The notes under the pieces are model-generated. The model was not told the origin of the DNA. It searched no databases and saw only the letters and a program-made list of their open reading frames with translations. DNA of 64,000 nucleotides from an uncultured Pseudomonadales bacterium (GTDB taxonomy: Bacteria; Patescibacteriota; Microgenomatia; UBA1400; UBA1396), in NCBI GenBank assembly GCA_964447905.1, contig CAYUUK010000005.1, forward strand, positions 279-64,278. The letters are read 5' to 3'. The stretch's first letter is position 1. Each line of letters begins with the position of its first letter. Below are positions 2,842 to 62,946 of this stretch, one piece after another. The position numbers were made by a program, and so were the translations under genes.

Positions 2842-3198
2842 ATGTGGATTTTTCAAGTGAGCATGGCACTTTTTGCGGTGAGCATGCTCTATGTGCTCAG
2901 AATTCATTACCGCAAGCATCGCTTAAGTGCTTTTGAGTTTGGGTGTTGGGTGGCCGTTTGGCTCAGTTTTGTTGGTTTTGCTTTGGTTCCATCGGTTTTA
3001 CAAGGGGTAGCTGATGTCTTGCGCATTGGTCGGGTATTTGACCTGCTTGTGATTGCCGCGTTTATTATTTTGAGTACCGTGGTTATGGGCACACGTCTTC
3101 TGGTTTTAAAGGTGCGTGACCAGCTGGAGCAGCTGGTGAGAATGCAAGCACTGCAACGAGCGGAGTACGAAAAAGAAGTTTCTCGACTGAAAAAGTAA
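2842..3198 (+). CDS. small DUF2304-like membrane protein (two TM segments plus a charged C-terminal helix)
   Basis: About 118 aa with two TM segments and a C-terminal coiled-coil, immediately upstream of a GT2 gene. This size, architecture and position are typical of DUF2304-like proteins. Confidence 0.5.
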   Translation: MWIFQVSMALFAVSMLYVLRIHYRKHRLSAFEFGCWVAVWLSFVGFALVPSVLQGVADVLRIGRVFDLLVIAAFIILSTVVMGTRLLVLKVRDQLEQLVRMQALQRAEYEKEVSRLKK

Positions 3199-3203
3199 AA
3201 ACT

Positions 3204-4001
3204 ATGTCAGTTTCCCTTCCCACAATTTCGCTGGTGATGCCAAGTTACAACCAAGTGCAGTTTTTGCGCGGTGCACTGGAAAGTGTGTTGCAGCAAGGAT
3301 ATCCAAAATTGCAGTTGATTGTGCGTGATGGTGGCTCTACTGATGGCTCGGTAGATGTCCTGCGCTCGTATGGCTCGCGATTCCAGTGGGTTTCTGAGTC
3401 CGATGGTGGGCAAACCGCAGCTTTGAATGCGGGCTTTGCGCAGGCTACTGGAGAGATTATTGGTTTTTTGAATAGTGATGATCTTTTACTCCCCAATACA
3501 CTCTGGGAAGTAGCGGGACTGTTCCGTCTGTTTCCAGATTTGAACTGGGTAACTGGAGACTATCAGATTATTGATGAACATGGACAGTTGCGAGATCCGC
3601 TGATCAAACAGTATAAAACTTGGCAACGAAGTATGTTTCGCCATAGCCCTGCACTTTTTCCGCTCATTCTCGGAGTAAATAATCCGATTGTGCAACCAAG
3701 TACTTTTTGGCGCCGAGATATTCATGATCAAGGTGCTCGCTTACGCGAAGATCTCGATCTGGTAATGGATTACGAGTGGTGGTGGCAGCTGTATCATGCG
3801 TATGGATCACCGCTTGTGGTGCCGTATGAATGGTCAGCATTTCGTGTGCATGCTGACTCAAAAGGGGGGAAGTACTTTGCCGAGCGCCTCAATGAGCAGC
3901 TGGAAGTGGCTAAAGAGTACCAGATTTCAGCAGGACTCCAAAATATTCACGCTTTTCACAATCAAGTTGTGACCTGGATGTATGAGCGCGGCATTTCGTG
4001 A
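3204..4001 (+). CDS. glycosyltransferase family 2
   Basis: N-terminal LVMPSYNQ...VRDGGSTDGS, plus D-x-D-containing NSDD, is a GT2 signature. Confidence 0.8.
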   Translation: MSVSLPTISLVMPSYNQVQFLRGALESVLQQGYPKLQLIVRDGGSTDGSVDVLRSYGSRFQWVSESDGGQTAALNAGFAQATGEIIGFLNSDDLLLPNTLWEVAGLFRLFPDLNWVTGDYQIIDEHGQLRDPLIKQYKTWQRSMFRHSPALFPLILGVNNPIVQPSTFWRRDIHDQGARLREDLDLVMDYEWWWQLYHAYGSPLVVPYEWSAFRVHADSKGGKYFAERLNEQLEVAKEYQISAGLQNIHAFHNQVVTWMYERGIS

Positions 4002-4014
4002 TGCGTTGAGAAAT

Positions 4015-5004
4015 TTACTCTGAGAGCGTGGCCTGCACTTGAGCCTCGATCCAGTTATAGGTGCGGCGCAAGCCTTCTTCTAAACTGATTTCTGGTTCCC
4101 ACTTGAGGACTTCTTTCAGCTTGGTGTTGTCTGAGTTTCGGCCGCGTACTCCTTGAGGACCCTCAATGTGTTTTTTGGAGATCTCGACGCCAGCGATAGT
4201 GGCAATAATGTCGGCAAGTTCATTGATAGTTACCATGCGGTCTTGCCCGATGTTGAGCGGCTCAGAATACTCGGAGTTCATAAGCAGGTGTAAGCCGGTG
4301 ACGGCATCGTCTACGTAACAGAAGGAGCGAGTTTGTTCACCGTCGCCCCAGATTTCAATTTCGTGGTTGCCGGTGAGTTTTGCGGTGGCGATTTTTCGAC
4401 AGAGAGCTGCTGGGGCTTTCTCGCGGCCACCTTGCCAGGTTCCCTCAGGACCAAAAATATTGTGGAAGCGAGTTACTCGCGTTTCGATTCCATAGTCCTG
4501 CTGGTAGTAATGACAGAATCGCTCAGAAATGAGTTTTTCCCAACCATAGGCGTCTTGTGGGTTGGCTGGATAGGCATCTTCTTCTTTGAGGGGCTGCAGA
4601 TTGGTGATTTCTTGTTTTTCAACAGGGTAGATACAGGCTGAAGAGGTATACAGATATTTTTTGACGCCATTTTTCTGTGCGGCATCTAAAGTGTGCGTAT
4701 TTATCAGAGAGTTGTCATGCAAAATGACAGCATCGTGGCTGGAAATGTATCCCATCCCGCCCATATCAGCGGCTAAGGCATAGACTTGATCAATGTCTTT
4801 GGTCGCGGTAAGTGCGGACTCTTTTTCCCTCAGATCGAGCAGTAGAAACTCATCGGCTACGGTCTCAGAGAATTCTGGCTTTTTGATGTCCACTCCACGC
4901 ACCCAGTACCCGCGTTCTTTGAGAAAAGCAACTAAATGGTGGCCAATAAAGCCTCCAGCACCGGTGACTAAAACTCTGGTTGATGCAGTATCTTTTGTGG
5001 ACAT
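4015..5004 (-). CDS. NAD-dependent sugar-nucleotide epimerase/dehydratase (extended SDR)
   Basis: VLVTGAGGFIGHHL Rossmann motif and YTSSACIY catalytic-region motif. ATG at 5004 with GGAG 5 nt upstream. The track ORF starts at TTG 5016. Confidence 0.8.
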   Translation of the reverse strand: MSTKDTASTRVLVTGAGGFIGHHLVAFLKERGYWVRGVDIKKPEFSETVADEFLLLDLREKESALTATKDIDQVYALAADMGGMGYISSHDAVILHDNSLINTHTLDAAQKNGVKKYLYTSSACIYPVEKQEITNLQPLKEEDAYPANPQDAYGWEKLISERFCHYYQQDYGIETRVTRFHNIFGPEGTWQGGREKAPAALCRKIATAKLTGNHEIEIWGDGEQTRSFCYVDDAVTGLHLLMNSEYSEPLNIGQDRMVTINELADIIATIAGVEISKKHIEGPQGVRGRNSDNTKLKEVLKWEPEISLEEGLRRTYNWIEAQVQATLSE

Positions 5005-5035
5005 GTATGACTCCAATTCTATTCGTGCTCACATC

Positions 5036-5626
5036 TTAGCGAGAGAAACCTTCGTACGCAACGCGGGGAATGATGCCAGCCTTATCAACTGGCCAGTAGC
5101 GTAGAAAGGCGCGACCAACTATATTTTGTTTGCCAATAGGTCCCCACACGCGCGAGTCTGAGGAAAAAGGGCGGTTATCGCCAACTACGAAGTACTCGTT
5201 TTCACCCAAAAATACTTCCCGTCCGCCAGCGGTAAACTCACCGGCTTTGGTGTAGTTTTCAGGAGGAATGTAGGGTTCTGGAAGCGCTTGACCATTAATG
5301 TAGATAGCATTGTCGTGCACTGAGAGGGTATCGCCGGGCAAGCCAATGACACGTTTAATAAAGTCACAGCCAGTCCCCTGTGCACAACCAGCCGCCTCAG
5401 GGGCATGAAACACTACCACGTCGCCGCGTCGTGGTTCGCCAGTTTGGTAGGACACTTTGTCGGTGAGGACATACTCACCGCTGAGAAAAGTGGGTTCCAT
5501 GGACTGTCCATTTACCTGGTGTGGTTGCATGAAGAACAGATACACCACCAAAAAAATGGAAAGAGCAACGACAACTGTTTCAACAATGTCGAGCATGGCA
5601 CCGCTTATGCGCTGGAAAATACTCAT
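5036..5626 (-). CDS. lepB: signal peptidase I
   Basis: GQSMEPTF (catalytic-Ser box) and GDNRPFSSDSRVWGPI box are hallmark SPase I motifs. Internal Met at 5626 chosen to avoid overlapping the divergent neighbour. Confidence 0.85.
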   Translation of the reverse strand: MSIFQRISGAMLDIVETVVVALSIFLVVYLFFMQPHQVNGQSMEPTFLSGEYVLTDKVSYQTGEPRRGDVVVFHAPEAAGCAQGTGCDFIKRVIGLPGDTLSVHDNAIYINGQALPEPYIPPENYTKAGEFTAGGREVFLGENEYFVVGDNRPFSSDSRVWGPIGKQNIVGRAFLRYWPVDKAGIIPRVAYEGFSR

Positions 5627-6744: not shown

Positions 6745-6761
6745 TCCGGTACAATACCCCT

Positions 6762-7958
6762 ATGTCTGATTTACCAAAACATACTTTAACGCCTGAATTG
6801 GCTTTACGCCGCGGCGTTGATCAGATCTTGCCTGATGCCGATGCACTGGCAAAGGAGATGAATCAACGCTCTATTCGGTTGTATTTAGGCATCGATCCAA
6901 CGGGAAATCAGCTGCATCTGGGCCATGCGGTGGTACTGCGAAAGCTACAGCAGTTTGCCGAACTTGGGCACGAAGTTATCTTGCTCATTGGCAATGGCAC
7001 CGTTAAAATCGGTGATCCCACCGGCAAAGACAAAACTCGTCCCATGATTACCGACGAAGAAATCGAAGCTAACTTCCACAACTGGAAAGAGCAGGCGAGT
7101 ACGATTCTTGATTTTGACAAAATCACTATTCGCCGCAATGGTGACTGGTATGACGAGATGAATTTCTCTGAGCTGATCCGGTTGTTTTCCAATATGACCG
7201 TGCAGCAGCTTATGGAGCGTGATATGTTCCAGGAGCGTTTGAAAAACAACGCTCCCATTCACGCTCACGAAATTCTCTACCCAATTTTGCAAGGATATGA
7301 CTCTGTGGCCATGGAAGTGGATCTCGAGCTTGGTGGCACCGACCAAATCTTTAACATGATGGTCGGCCGACAGATGCTCAGGAGTATGAATGACCGTGAA
7401 AAATGGGTGCTGGCTGTGCCACTGCTCATTGGTACCGATGGTCGCAAGATGGGCAAGTCACTCGGTAACTTTATTGCTCTCACTGAAGCCCCACGCGACA
7501 TGTACGGCAAGCTGATGTCAGTTACCGACGAAATTATTACGCAGTACTTCCGTTTGCTGACCGACGTGGCCGACGAAGAGATCGACGACATGGACGCACA
7601 GATGGCGAATGGTGCGAACCCGATGGAGTTTAAGAAGCAGCTTGCTTTCACGATTACGGCTGATCTGCATGACACGTCGGCCGCTGAAGATGCCCAAGCC
7701 TACTTTGAGCGGACGGTGCAGCAGGGTGAGGTGCCGAAGAATATGCCGACACTTTCTCTTTCTCAGCAAGAAATCAGTGTTCTCGATCTTGTGATGGCCT
7801 CACAAGTTCCTGGGAGTCGCAGCGAGGGACGACGACTGATCGAACAAGGCGGGGTGAGTGTAAATGACGAAAAACTCACCGACCCCACTGCCGAAATTTC
7901 ACCTCAGTCCGGAGCCGTACTAAAAGTAGGAAAGCGAAATTGGTTTCGCATTGAGTAA
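6762..7958 (+). CDS. tyrS: tyrosyl-tRNA synthetase
   Basis: Class I HIGH motif as HLGH, KMSKS as KMGKS, and a C-terminal S4-like domain (GGVSVNDEKL). About 400 aa. Confidence 0.9.
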   Translation: MSDLPKHTLTPELALRRGVDQILPDADALAKEMNQRSIRLYLGIDPTGNQLHLGHAVVLRKLQQFAELGHEVILLIGNGTVKIGDPTGKDKTRPMITDEEIEANFHNWKEQASTILDFDKITIRRNGDWYDEMNFSELIRLFSNMTVQQLMERDMFQERLKNNAPIHAHEILYPILQGYDSVAMEVDLELGGTDQIFNMMVGRQMLRSMNDREKWVLAVPLLIGTDGRKMGKSLGNFIALTEAPRDMYGKLMSVTDEIITQYFRLLTDVADEEIDDMDAQMANGANPMEFKKQLAFTITADLHDTSAAEDAQAYFERTVQQGEVPKNMPTLSLSQQEISVLDLVMASQVPGSRSEGRRLIEQGGVSVNDEKLTDPTAEISPQSGAVLKVGKRNWFRIE

Positions 7959-39559: not shown

Positions 39560-39634
39560 ATCTTATACTTCACGCGCATCTCACATGAGAAGTACATGAT
39601 ATTATATCATGCGATTCACCTGTACAATAGGAAT

Positions 39635-40813
39635 ATGGACAACAGCTCTCCTCTGGCACATTTGCTCCGCCCGACAACTTTGAATGAAGTAGTCGGACAG
39701 TTGCACCTCATTGGCGAAGATAAGCCGCTCCGCCGATTGGTAGAAAAGAACGATGTGTACTCCATGATTTTCTGGGGACCACCAGGTGTGGGAAAAACCA
39801 CACTGGCAAGAATTCTAGCCAAGGCGAGTAACCGACCATTTATTGAGCTCTCGGCTGTTTCTGCCTCGAAAGCTGATGTGCGGGCCGTAATCGAAGATGC
39901 TCGTGCTCCGCAAAAAATGCTTACACAAACACATGTGCCACCAGTACTTTTTCTCGACGAAATTCATCGTTTTACGAAAGCGCAGCAAGATTTTCTATTG
40001 CCCTACGTCGAAGACGGCACAATTATTCTCATTGGAGCTACTACCGAGAATCCCTCTTTTGAAGTAATTTCACCGCTTCTGTCGCGGATGCGAGTGTATG
40101 TACTCGAAGAGCTTTCTCTCTCAGATTTGGAAACATTAGCAAAAAAAGCCTTTCACAGTCTTGGGATTGAAGACCCAAATGATGATGTTGTCCGAGAGGC
40201 GATTCGGCAAGCGAACGGCGATGCCCGACAACTGCTCACACTCCTTGATCATGCCTGGCAAACCTATGGTGAGATTACCAGTGAACAGCTGGAAAGCATT
40301 GGCCACAACTTGGTTCGTTTTGACAAGAGCGGTGAACAACACTACGACACCATCAGTGCCTTTATCAAAAGCATGCGCGCCAGCAATGTGGATGCGGCAC
40401 TGTACTATTTGGCACGGCTGGTCCATGGTGGGGAAGACCCCAAGTTTATTGCTCGGAGAATGGTGATTTTTGCTAGCGAAGACATCGGTTTAGCGCAACC
40501 AACTGCCCTCGTGGTGGCGAACGCCGTTTTTGATGCAGTGCACAAAACAGGATACCCCGAGGCACAGATAACGCTCGCTCACGGTGCAGCGTATTTGGCG
40601 CAAGCCAAAAAAGATCGTTCAGCCTATGATGCGTATTTTGCGGCACTCAGAGATGTAGAGAGTACTGGAAACCTACCAATACCAAAAAAACTTCGTAATG
40701 CTCCTTCAAAGCTTATGAAAGAGCTGGGGTATGGTGAAGGATATGACATGTATCCAGAGCCAGGTGAAAGTTTATTGCCAGAAAAGTTACAGAAGAAACG
40801 ATACTTTTCGTAG
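39635..40813 (+). CDS. rarA: replication-associated recombination protein A (AAA+ ATPase)
   Basis: Walker [12 protein letters not shown]; N-terminus [15 protein letters not shown] typical of RarA/MgsA. Confidence 0.85.
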
Positions 40814-52038: not shown

Positions 52039-52066
52039 TTGCACTATTACACTTGAGGAGTACAAT
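52039..52066 (+). promoter_or_regulatory. orphan promoter TTGCAC-16-TACAAT
   Basis: The hexamers seen directly. No protein gene follows for about 170 nt. Confidence 0.35.
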
Positions 52067-52192
52067 AGTGTGGAAATGAGTTTACAGCATTGCTACACTC
52101 CAGCGTTTACTATTTCACTTCGCCAAGGCAAGTGGAATTCGCGGGGTGCGCTTACATTTTTCTAAAAAAGAAAGACAAAAACAGAAAGCACA

Positions 52193-52220
52193 CCCCGGCC
52201 AAACACCGGGGATTTTTTTT
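52193..52220 (+). terminator. intrinsic terminator (CCCCGG-ccaaaca-CCGGGG followed by a T8 run)
   Basis: Perfect 6-bp GC stem with a 7-nt loop, then ATTTTTTTT, seen directly. Confidence 0.6.
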
Positions 52221-52235
52221 GAGAAGAAAGGAAAC

Positions 52236-52403
52236 ATGAAAAGTAGGGAGTCACTGACTAGAGAGCCAGAGAGGGCTCGCTTGATAAGCCATGACGAAAA
52301 CGCAGACTTTGAAAATATGCAGCAATTCGTCCTGAAGTATCGTGGCGAGAGTGTGCTGGTGCCAGATGTGGCAAAGCGGCTCTTTTATCCTGCTTTTGAA
52401 TAA
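52236..52403 (+). CDS. small hypothetical protein (55 aa)
   Basis: ATG after GAAAGG. The longer track ORF (52146) would read through the terminator hairpin. Confidence 0.35.
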   Translation: MKSRESLTREPERARLISHDENADFENMQQFVLKYRGESVLVPDVAKRLFYPAFE

Positions 52404-52419
52404 AATACGAGGAGAACCT

Positions 52420-52797
52420 ATGACTACAGAAAATGAACCAAGAACAAGAGTCGTTACTAAAAGCGAAGTACAGCATTTCATGTTTACTAGCAATGAAGAG
52501 ATCGCTATTGGTGCTCTCGTGCTAGGTAAAATAAATCAGCTCTATAGCAGTGACAGACGTGGTATTCGTATTTCTGGAACCTTTCCAATAAGTTCGATTT
52601 TCTTCCAGTTTGAGAATATAGATTTTGACCTTTACGATATAAGAGATTTACAACTTATTCTCGATATAAATACTCGTTTATTGGGAAGTTTAGCCAGATA
52701 TTGTAGTGCGGTGAATTTAGATCCTACTATCGCTATAAAAATTCAAGCAAAAATAGCTGAGTTGCAAAAAAAGGACCAGGGCGGATCAGTTCGGTAG
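52420..52797 (+). CDS. hypothetical protein (125 aa), AT-rich
   Basis: ATG 5 nt after a GAGGAG Shine-Dalgarno. No family. Confidence 0.45.
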   Translation: MTTENEPRTRVVTKSEVQHFMFTSNEEIAIGALVLGKINQLYSSDRRGIRISGTFPISSIFFQFENIDFDLYDIRDLQLILDINTRLLGSLARYCSAVNLDPTIAIKIQAKIAELQKKDQGGSVR

Positions 52798-61511: not shown

Positions 61512-61542
61512 AATACAAGTCTGCATCGTGTACAATACCATC

Positions 61543-62946
61543 ATGCAACGAACGTATATTTCTGAAACTGTTGAACACGTCGGCGAGACCGTTACCCTTT
61601 CTGGATGGGTTGATACCAAGCGTGATCACGGCAAAATCACCTTTATTGATCTGCGTGATCGGACCGGAGTGGTGCAGTGTGTTGGCTTTAAGATGATGAG
61701 TGAACTGACTGTTGAGTCGGTAGTTTCCTTAACAGGACTTATTAAAGCTCGCCCAGAGAAACTCATTAATCGAGATCTCCCAACTGGAACAGTGGAAATA
61801 GAAGTACAGAGTTACGAAGTGCTCAATGCAGCTACCGAGCTTCCAATTTTGGTAAAAGATGATGGTCGCAAAGAAAACGAAGAAGTGCGGCTCAAGTATC
61901 GCTACTTAGATCTGCGCCGTGAACGCATGCACTCGATTGTACAGCTGCGCTCCCAACTCACCCGTGCTCTCCGAGAAGAACTCTATGCAGCTGATTTTGT
62001 AGAAGTAGAAACACCGCTCCTCACCAAGTCCACAAAAGAAGGAGCACGTGACTTTGTGGTGCCATCTCGTTTCAACCCGGGCAAGTTTTATGCTTTGCCA
62101 CAGAGCCCGCAGCAGTACAAACAGCTGCTTATGACTGCCGGTGTCGAACGATACTTCCAATTTGCTCGCTGTATTCGGGATGAAGACCTCCGCGCTGATC
62201 GCGGATTTGAGTTTACGCAGCTCGACTTGGAAATGAGCTTTGTTGAGCAATCTGACGTCACTGACTTTGTTGAGTCGATGGTCAAGTCTGCTGTGCACTC
62301 TGTTGGCGGCAAGTTGCAACAAGAAAAATTCCCTGTCTACACCTATGAGCAGGCAATGAAGGAATTTGGTGAAGACCGGTTCGATCTTCGTACAGAAGAG
62401 GAAAAAGAGCAGGGCGTTTTAGCGTTTGCCTGGGTGGTTGACTTCCCATTCTTCAAGAAAGTAGACAAAAAAGACACCGCCGAAGTCCGAGATGGGAAAA
62501 GCGGTTGGACTTTTACGCACAATCCATTCAGCATGCCTCACGCCGAAGACCTAGAAAAACACATGAACGGTGAAGACCTCGACTCTATTTTGACGTACCA
62601 ATACGACTTAGTATGTAACGGCTACGAAGTTGGCGGCGGAAGTATCCGCGCACACCGACCAGAAATACTGCGCCAAACATTTGCCATCATGGGCTACAGC
62701 GAAGATGAAATTGAGCAAAGCATCGGTCACATGCTCAAAGCCTTTGAGCTTGGTACCCCACCACATGGAGGTATAGCCTTGGGATTTGATCGTTTAGTTA
62801 TGCTGTTAGCTGGCGAAACTTCTCTGAAAGAGACGGTCGCTTTCCCAATGACCTCAACCGGAAAAACTGCCGTTATGGACGCCCCAGCCAGTATTTCAGA
62901 TGAGCAGCTGGATGAACTGCATCTGCAAGTGGTTGAAAAAGAGTAA
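61543..62946 (+). CDS. aspS: aspartyl-tRNA synthetase (short form lacking the bacterial GAD insertion domain)
   Basis: Class II motif 2 FRDEDLRADRGFEFTQLDLEMSF and motif 3 GGGSIRAH. N-terminal OB-fold. Confidence 0.9.
   Translation: MQRTYISETVEHVGETVTLSGWVDTKRDHGKITFIDLRDRTGVVQCVGFKMMSELTVESVVSLTGLIKARPEKLINRDLPTGTVEIEVQSYEVLNAATELPILVKDDGRKENEEVRLKYRYLDLRRERMHSIVQLRSQLTRALREELYAADFVEVETPLLTKSTKEGARDFVVPSRFNPGKFYALPQSPQQYKQLLMTAGVERYFQFARCIRDEDLRADRGFEFTQLDLEMSFVEQSDVTDFVESMVKSAVHSVGGKLQQEKFPVYTYEQAMKEFGEDRFDLRTEEEKEQGVLAFAWVVDFPFFKKVDKKDTAEVRDGKSGWTFTHNPFSMPHAEDLEKHMNGEDLDSILTYQYDLVCNGYEVGGGSIRAHRPEILRQTFAIMGYSEDEIEQSIGHMLKAFELGTPPHGGIALGFDRLVMLLAGETSLKETVAFPMTSTGKTAVMDAPASISDEQLDELHLQVVEKE

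Follow-up and report, generated by a model that had tools for sequence, protein, structure and literature searches.

A candidate leader-peptide transcription attenuator in the recJ-carboxypeptidase slot of Patescibacteria

The recJ-carboxypeptidase slot and its occupant

The 64,000-nucleotide stretch of contig CAYUUK010000005.1 analyzed here (GenBank assembly GCA_964447905.1; henceforth the window) comes from an uncultured member of the Patescibacteriota and carries, in a gap between two minus-strand genes, a short plus-strand unit for which we propose a role as a leader-peptide transcription attenuator. The minus-strand genes run in the order recJ (54414 to 52786), a gap of 780 nt, an S11-family D-Ala-D-Ala carboxypeptidase (51959 to 50973), a 355-aa protein and gltX; the candidate unit lies on the plus strand inside the gap and is followed by two small genes, termed here ORF55 and ORF125 (ORF, open reading frame). 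A previous examination of the letters of this DNA alone (the sequence-only reading) had described the unit as a promoter and a strong intrinsic terminator with no credible protein-coding frame between them. The promoter, with its TTGCAC and TACAAT hexamers and 16-nt spacer, is found exactly where that reading placed it. However, a 29-codon ATG-initiated ORF, the leader micro-ORF, takes up the space between promoter and terminator, and every relative keeps an ORF at this place; the loss of the claim that no coding frame is present shifts the mechanism under consideration from a non-coding RNA to a leader-peptide attenuator. The coordinates of all features are collected in Table 1.

Ten genomes carry the unit between recJ and the carboxypeptidase gene and are referred to as the slot genomes: the window itself and those labeled L002, L003, L005, L006, L007, L008, L044, L045 and L046 (L003 and L004 are the same species and are counted together). 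With the two genomes L013 and L015 they make up a set of twelve, in all of which a covariance model (CM) finds the element, the matches to L013 and L015 having E-values of ~1e-7 and 4e-6 respectively. The contig itself is known only from one NCBI record and from run SRR7048223 as assembled in Logan. Homologs of the carboxypeptidase show 43-68% identity, one of them being named Candidatus Woesebacteria; the carriers in the slot are Woesebacteria-like members of the candidate phyla radiation (CPR). All nine relatives of the window carry the unit at this site, likewise antisense to the flanking genes, with the full layout of promoter, ORF, G-run in the 3' end of the ORF, stop codon, A-rich spacer, C-run hairpin with T5-8, Shine-Dalgarno (SD) sequence and ATG. 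A composite scan for the terminator, antiterminator, ORF and promoter together recovered this layout once in the window and in nine of the ten slot genomes, L045 failing the energy cut-off, and in none of 35 other loci.

The -35 hexamer agrees with the consensus at only three of six positions, which is why a consensus scan does not list the promoter, and the hexamers alone are not significant. A TTGnnn-16/17-TAnAnT pair occupies the equivalent position in all nine slot relatives, and an equivalent layout can be read by eye in L013 and L015. GTACAAT is mildly enriched in the window (13 copies against 6.9 expected, with 13 reached in 3 of 100 shuffles), and TACAAT is found upstream of both tRNA-Pro and tRNA-Val. 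TACAAT also stands exactly 6 nt 5' of an in-frame ATG in three long ORFs (ATGs at 6762, 39635 and 61543). Judged from this spacing, the mRNAs of these ORFs probably lack a leader, a hint that leaderless initiation is widespread in this organism and plausible for the micro-ORF, which has no SD sequence and whose ATG lies 9 nt past the -10 box, giving a predicted 5' untranslated region (UTR) of ~2-3 nt.

Comparison of the leader ORFs showed that: 1) An ORF of 21-29 codons is present in all twelve genomes, with 24-29 codons in the carriers in the recJ slot. Its ATG lies 5-14 nt after the -10 box in the slot genomes; in L013 and L015 this distance is 8 nt. 2) Frame 0 is open in all ten genomes checked, the other frames containing 0-2 stops, and the frame is preserved through sequence divergence and through indels of 3n nucleotides. 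3) The stop codon follows the antiterminator arm by 1-15 nt in ten genomes, and in L013 and L015 it comes directly after the G-run. 4) The combined layout (ATG near the -10 box, a frame open through the antiterminator arm and a stop just after it) turns up in 2-13% of the shuffles of any one genome; multiplied over the least favorable genome in each of 5 clades, these chances give 1.7e-6. 5) Frame 0 shows about double the amino acid identity of the other frames, and the peptide core I-x-L-R-Q/K is kept by synonymous codons (CTT/CTC/TTG, CGC/CGT, TCG/AGC). 6) The leader ORFs of L013 and L015, both low in G+C and with a carboxypeptidase only 33-34% identical to that of the window, have 21 codons and encode MSSIINYSHFFLIILRKNVAG and MSLNINYLHFFVIILRKNVMG, which share with the window peptide M-S-L, Y7, F11, I13, L15 and R16. 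These shared residues are specified by different codons (TTG for CTT, CGT for CGC), which favors selection at the level of the peptide and hence translation of the ORF.

Competing helices in the leader RNA

Apart from the terminator, no perfect G+C-rich stem leads into a T-run anywhere on the two strands of the 64 kb, and a hairpin of equal quality arose in 1 of 100 Markov-simulated windows (~0.01). A relaxed, energy-based scan returns many weak sites of hairpin plus T5, nearly all of them intragenic; only three are intergenic, and that at 52193-52220 is the cleanest. Judging from the window, this genome makes no routine use of canonical terminators, and the present one therefore stands out. 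Its sequence is as previously described, and conservation of the hairpin in related genomes, a check that the sequence-only reading had proposed, is borne out with compensatory changes: the inner pairs of the stem are GC/GC in the window and UA/CG in the L006 clade, and the stems of L008 and L045 are longer. In a consensus scan the hairpin appears for the plus and the minus strand alike. Ahead of the terminator-proximal arm described below, and after the micro-ORF stop, lies a spacer (52157-52185 in the window) that is strongly A-rich in every genome; this composition may keep the spacer unstructured or may provide a U-tract for minus-strand transcripts.

A second helix competes with the terminator. 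Pairing of CGGGGUGCGCUU (region 2), in the 3' end of the micro-ORF, with AAGCACACCCCG (region 3) sequesters the 5' arm of the terminator, and the two structures are mutually exclusive. The sequence-only reading had suggested folding the RNA in search of such an alternative, and the helix was found: its duplex energy is -21.2 kcal/mol against -10.7 +/- 2.5 kcal/mol for shuffled upstream sequence, and only 1 of 1000 shuffles reaches it. The 155-nt RNA as a whole folds better than its shuffles (z = -2.76), and the antiterminator alternative appears in the centroid of a longer fold. The whole-leader folds with the terminator and with the antiterminator differ little in energy (-43.9 and -42.6 kcal/mol), and as long as the growing RNA is still short of the terminator's 3' arm, the antiterminator is the minimum-energy fold. 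In nine of the ten slot genomes the observed antiterminator energy is reached by 0-2.4% of dinucleotide shuffles, and in five of the genomes, the window among them, by none of 500.

The arms of the antiterminator vary by clade (GGGGUGCGCUU, GGGGUUGUGC, GGGGGUUUGU and GGGGGC), each fitting its own partner. Cognate arms pair with a mean energy of -18.8 kcal/mol against -14.4 kcal/mol for non-cognate combinations, and none of 20000 permutations reaches the cognate mean. Applied to a plain MAFFT alignment, RNAalifold returned the antiterminator helix as the only consensus structure. Column-based pair counts on MAFFT alignments were abandoned because the registers shift between rows, and pairs were counted instead from per-sequence registers and from a CM-fitted alignment. 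The per-sequence tables give 11 of 12 canonical pairs in the window and 9-11 of 12 in eight genomes. In the CM-fitted alignment, which is fitted to the structure and takes in six low-scoring matches unlikely to be genuine members, pairing extends to 82.6% of the cells (62.4% in shuffles). Covariation scores 0.386 there, where shuffles give 0.148; none of 500 shuffles reaches the observed score, which exceeds that of all slid registers. The switch helices thus covary across genomes, as the sequence-only reading had anticipated for a genuine element.

Table 1. Positions of the features discussed, in window coordinates except where a genome label is given
Feature	Position	Strand	Details
Promoter	52039-52066	+	-35 TTGCAC 52039-52044; 16-nt spacer; -10 TACAAT 52061-52066
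Leader micro-ORF	52076-52165	+	29 codons and TAA (52163-52165); MSLQHCYTPAFTISLRQGKWNSRGALTFF
Hairpin P2 in micro-ORF	52112-52138	+	In-frame CAA 52124-52126 in loop, 17 nt 5' of antiterminator arm
Region 2, antiterminator 5' arm	52142-52153	+	CGGGGUGCGCUU; micro-ORF codons 23-26
Region 3, antiterminator 3' arm	52186-52197	+	AAGCACACCCCG; overlaps first five bases of terminator 5' arm
Intrinsic terminator	52193-52220	+	Stem CCCCGG/CCGGGG 52193-52211; 7-nt loop ccaaaca; A; T8 52213-52220
ORF55, first gene (putatively regulated)	52226-52403	+	SD GAAAGGA 52226-52232; ATG 52236; stop 52401-52403
ORF125, second gene	52409-52797	+	SD GAGGAG 52409-52414; ORF 52420-52797
TACAAT-N6-ATG sites	6750-6764; 39623-39637; 61531-61545		Last is aspS
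Empty or altered slots	L009 1-720; L047 2496-2501; L048 2494-2501; L002 2853-3938		
Element and context in distant members	L013 270-700; L015 290-720		

Proposed mechanism and competing explanations

A conserved, near-leaderless ORF holds the antiterminator arm at its 3' end, and the device accordingly looks ribosome-dependent rather than like a riboswitch or a plain small RNA (sRNA). We propose, with a probability of about 0.7, that the unit acts in cis and attenuates transcription according to the ribosome on its leader ORF, in the manner of the leader-peptide (trp-leader) attenuators. Transcription would start at ~52073 from the TTGCAC/TACAAT promoter, and the RNA would open almost at the AUG of the micro-ORF. 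A ribosome reaching the stop codon would cover region 2, leaving region 3 to pair with region 4, whereupon RNA polymerase would stop at ~52220 and a leader RNA of ~150 nt would be released. Were there no ribosome, or a slow one, or one held no later than codon ~17 (CAA 52124), region 2 would be free to pair with region 3, and the resulting antiterminator would remove the 5' arm of the terminator and permit read-through into ORF55 and ORF125. We infer translation of the micro-ORF, the choice of fold by ribosome position and the direction of regulation from the way in which trp-type and stall-responsive attenuators are known to work.

Several observations weigh against this proposal: 1) The antiterminator of L045 is weak, its energy being reached by 12.6% of shuffles. 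2) The sequences compared are related by descent and are not independent samples. 3) The energies of candidate anti-antiterminators, formed by pairing of a region 1 with region 2 and expected to bring about termination in an untranslated leader, are reached by 4.6-95% of shuffles; the candidates, CACUCC-A-GCG at 52096-105 with 52140-48 in the window and GGCACAAC/GUUGUGCC in L006, are no better than shuffles. 4) The three codon positions take nearly equal shares of the differences between relatives (10/12/13), and most of the peptide is therefore free of purifying selection. 5) The in-frame coding score of the micro-ORF is -3.3 bits/100 nt, although its 96 nt are too short for this score to judge. 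6) Lacking an SD sequence, the micro-ORF would need leaderless or short-leader initiation with a 5' UTR of 0-8 nt. 7) There is no run of regulatory codons in the micro-ORF, and no tandem codons are common to the 12 peptides. Such a run defines the amino-acid subclass of attenuators and not the stall-responsive subclass.

As to what might stall the ribosome, the conserved core of the peptide leads us to favor peptide-dependent stalling or general translation stress over the sensing of a single amino acid. A local hairpin around an in-frame CAA codon lies 15-22 nt 5' of region 2 in all ten slot genomes, with differing stem sequences (P2 in the window), and might act as a pause hairpin. Sensing of Gln-tRNA through this seemingly invariant CAA was considered and down-weighted, the codon at this position being AAG in L013 and L015. 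A bolder version, which we regard as tentative and on balance doubtful, is that the micro-ORF encodes a sensory arrest peptide with the core Y..F.I.LR-Q/K, which would stall the ribosome from within the tunnel in response to a specific small molecule or translation stress, turn off the intrinsic terminator and thereby induce the fast-evolving family of small basic proteins; to our knowledge the peptide contains no familiar arrest motif. If this were true, it would be a leaderless arrest-peptide sensor of the TnaC/Erm-leader kind native to the CPR/Patescibacteria, and one portable between contexts, namely the recJ slot in ten genomes and a place upstream of a small CxxC protein and aspS in two.

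Among the alternatives, it is unlikely that the unit exists to make the 29-aa product of the micro-ORF, as a small-protein gene of the usual kind, with the hairpin as its terminator and the antiterminator tuning a leaky read-through into ORF55 and ORF125. Such a gene would account for the conservation of the ORF and for the extension of the core Y..F.I.LR to distant genomes via synonymous codons, and leader peptides can work in trans, as is reported for peTrpL (PMC7298713). Yet the peptide is almost wholly divergent between clades, with the even distribution of differences noted above, whereas the best-conserved trait is the geometry, in which region 2 sits within the last codons of the ORF and is closely followed by the stop; a plain gene with a terminator also needs no covarying helix that competes with that terminator.

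We consider it very unlikely that the leader is ribosome-independent, that is, a riboswitch or a protein- or tRNA-binding attenuator in which a ligand stabilizes upstream hairpins and thereby selects the fold. The terminator/antiterminator switch itself, the folding of the 155-nt RNA beyond its shuffles and the hairpin that presents the CAA in its loop in ten genomes would all suit such a device. However, no Rfam family, T-box and all riboswitches included, matches at E-values up to 10; the sequence 5' of region 2 is scarcely alignable between clades and yields no conserved aptamer-like helix; region 1:2 pairing is not significant; and in L013 and L015 the CAA gives way to AAG. Such a device would also leave unexplained the ORF, the preservation of its frame through indels and the ATG fixed beside the -10 box. 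A T-box in particular was considered and rejected, there being no match to the T-box in Rfam, the leader being too short and the ORF remaining unaccounted for.

The sequence-only reading had offered both a terminator/antiterminator leader and an independent sRNA. The former is strongly supported by the antiterminator, its covariation and the SD-led gene downstream, and nothing points to a role in trans. A trans-acting sRNA of ~150 nt with its own terminator, the downstream genes having another promoter, is in our estimate highly improbable: the presence of a promoter and a strong terminator with no known family agrees with it, and RNAs derived from attenuators can work in trans, as is reported for rnTrpL (PMC6614838), but the T-run is separated from the ATG of ORF55 by 15 nt in the window, with no promoter-like site between, and an SD sequence and start codon follow 12-53 nt past the terminator in all ten slot genomes. 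An antiterminator would be pointless in a free-standing sRNA, and what is conserved is the ORF core and the switch helices, with no conserved single-stranded seed seen. Equally improbable is that the hairpin serves mainly to insulate, in both directions, the antisense cassette from the minus-strand recJ and carboxypeptidase genes at its sides, for although it is listed on the minus strand too, the A-rich spacer reads there as a U-rich tract in all genomes and the cassette divides a gene pair contiguous in L047 and L048, the minus strand has 6-8 non-U bases between the stem and the U-rich tract, which is poor for intrinsic termination, and neither the micro-ORF nor the antiterminator would be explained.

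Related systems and neighboring genes

At the gathering score the only Rfam matches in the window are three tRNAs, and nothing in 51900-52500 matches at E < 0.1, so that the scan proposed in the sequence-only reading assigned the region to no described family, whether T-box, riboswitch, leader or sRNA. The best sub-threshold matches are to leader-peptide attenuators, which supports the attenuator proposal: Trp_leader (RF00513, 13.7 bits against a threshold of 41) and Thr_leader (RF00506, 14.1 against 55) in the window, and Phe_leader (RF01859, 30.8 against 55), Trp_leader (21.6 against 41) and Leu_leader (RF00512, 21.0 against 50) in L013. The proteobacterial leaders trpL, pheL, hisL, thrL and leuL (RF00513, RF01859, RF00514, RF00506 and RF00512) have, as here, a short promoter-proximal ORF with the 5' arm of the antiterminator at its 3' end, an overlapping terminator with a U-run, and a regulated gene beyond. 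The present element differs from them in having neither an SD sequence nor a run of regulatory codons, in that its candidate region 1:2 pairings are no stronger than those of shuffles, in preceding uncharacterized small proteins rather than biosynthetic enzymes, and in its CPR host.

In Firmicutes, antibiotic- or stall-responsive leader ORFs such as those of yxjB (tylosin; PMC6851288), msrD (msrDL; PMC10314930) and hflXr (PMC6310831) respond to ribosome stalling by inducing the downstream gene, and the identity of the leader peptide can matter, according to these reports. As described there, they too place a short ORF without amino-acid codon runs before a terminator/antiterminator switch, but these ORFs are SD-led and stand before recognizable resistance or translation factors, whereas the proteins here belong to no known family and suggest no nameable inducer. 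In mycobacteria, leaderless polycysteine short ORFs serve as cysteine-responsive attenuators (bioRxiv 10.1101/834739). As reported, they resemble our proposal in that a leaderless first cistron lets ribosome position control downstream genes; they differ in acting at the level of translation, by unmasking a sequestered ribosome-binding site, and in their tract of Cys codons, where the present element has an intrinsic transcription terminator. The micro-ORF peptides have zero to three scattered Cys codons. TnaC, a metabolite-sensing arrest peptide (PMC8429421, PMC8450073), is likewise a short leader peptide (~24 aa) with conserved residues that governs downstream transcription termination, as we propose here, but it acts at its stop codon on Rho-dependent termination, whereas here the terminator is intrinsic and the downstream genes imply no ligand.

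On this reading the element is a new family of a known mechanistic kind. In the literature searched, no paper unites leader-peptide attenuation with Patescibacteria, and a leader-peptide attenuator may be previously undescribed for them. Gene regulation is almost unexplored in these uncultured bacteria, whose genomes are very small; the element offers a concrete and testable regulatory device conserved in at least twelve genomes, and suggests both coupling of transcription to translation and leaderless initiation of a regulatory ORF in these organisms. If small, fast-evolving proteins of the ORF55 type are placed under such tight control, they are probably important. In practical terms, the analysis corrects a public gene call, and the covariance model together with the ORF signature could be used to annotate the element across the Microgenomates.

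The gene call in question is an 85-aa protein running from GTG 52146 to 52403, straight through the terminator hairpin. The sequence-only reading had already judged a frame that crosses the hairpin not to be credible, and the public call is best viewed as an over-extension: from the conserved GAAAGGA, the predicted true start is ATG 52236, giving a protein of 55 aa. ORF55 has an in-frame coding score of +1.35 bits/100 nt against -18 to -19 in other frames. GAAAGGA and ATG are found in nine of the ten slot genomes, L005 having AAGGAG instead, and a protein of 51-63 aa follows the terminator in nine. Family links are detectable between the window and L003 (E-value 1e-8) and between L002 and L044 (5e-10), and the family, although fast-evolving, has a C-terminal motif of the form L-P-x-R-Y-L-K-K-x-L-F or L-F-x-P-A-F-E.

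ORF125 scores +2.47 in frame against -15 to -19 in other frames, has a G+C content of 36.5% (29% at third codon positions) against ~48% in the surrounding genes, and overlaps the 3' end of the convergent recJ by 12 nt. Five genomes have this second gene, which encodes 125-134 aa, the counterparts in L003, L005, L045 and L046 being 128-134 aa long; it evolves very fast, and similarity is detectable only between the window and L005 (E-value 1e-6) and between L005 and L045 (0.003), those of L003 and L046 being positional counterparts only. Sequence searches with ORF55 and ORF125 returned only the proteins themselves (for ORF125, among 1.8-5.8 billion proteins), the downstream proteins have no match in Pfam, NCBIfam, PADLOC or PHROG, and an AlphaFold model of ORF125 made without an alignment is unusable, with a predicted local distance difference test score of 46. 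The relatives of both proteins were found through synteny alone: the earlier description of the two genes as orphans is right as far as sequence search goes, but ORF55 has positional homologs in eight relatives and ORF125 has counterparts in four.

Beyond these genomes, a metagenome scan with the single carboxypeptidase protein gave no matches, and a scan with a carboxypeptidase profile gave mainly distant loci, of which only L013 and L015 have the element. In both, the leader is followed by a second, conserved hairpin with T7, a 47-aa CxxC protein, aspS and the carboxypeptidase gene. The second hairpin (CCCUU...AAGGG, at approximately 487-545 in L013) has no above-threshold Rfam match and is followed by AGGAGG and the 47-aa protein, which is basic and has a CxxC...C motif. 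An exact-pattern scan of viral contigs for the switch helices gave no match. Elsewhere in the window, the segments at 43.8-45.4 kb and 60.4-61.4 kb were considered as gene gaps and rejected, as ordinary genes lie there.

The slot is empty in L009, L047 and L048 despite equal synteny, recJ abutting the carboxypeptidase gene or nearly so. The cassette is hence present in some relatives and absent from others, and on this comparison it appears to behave as an insertion/deletion polymorphism dividing the recJ-carboxypeptidase gene pair. In L002 an additional gene for a 361-aa membrane protein lies next to the cassette (2853-3938). In L047, on a contig of 1.08 Mb, a gene for a Y1_Tnp (IS200-like) transposase (4643-5140) lies between a 361-aa gene and gltX.

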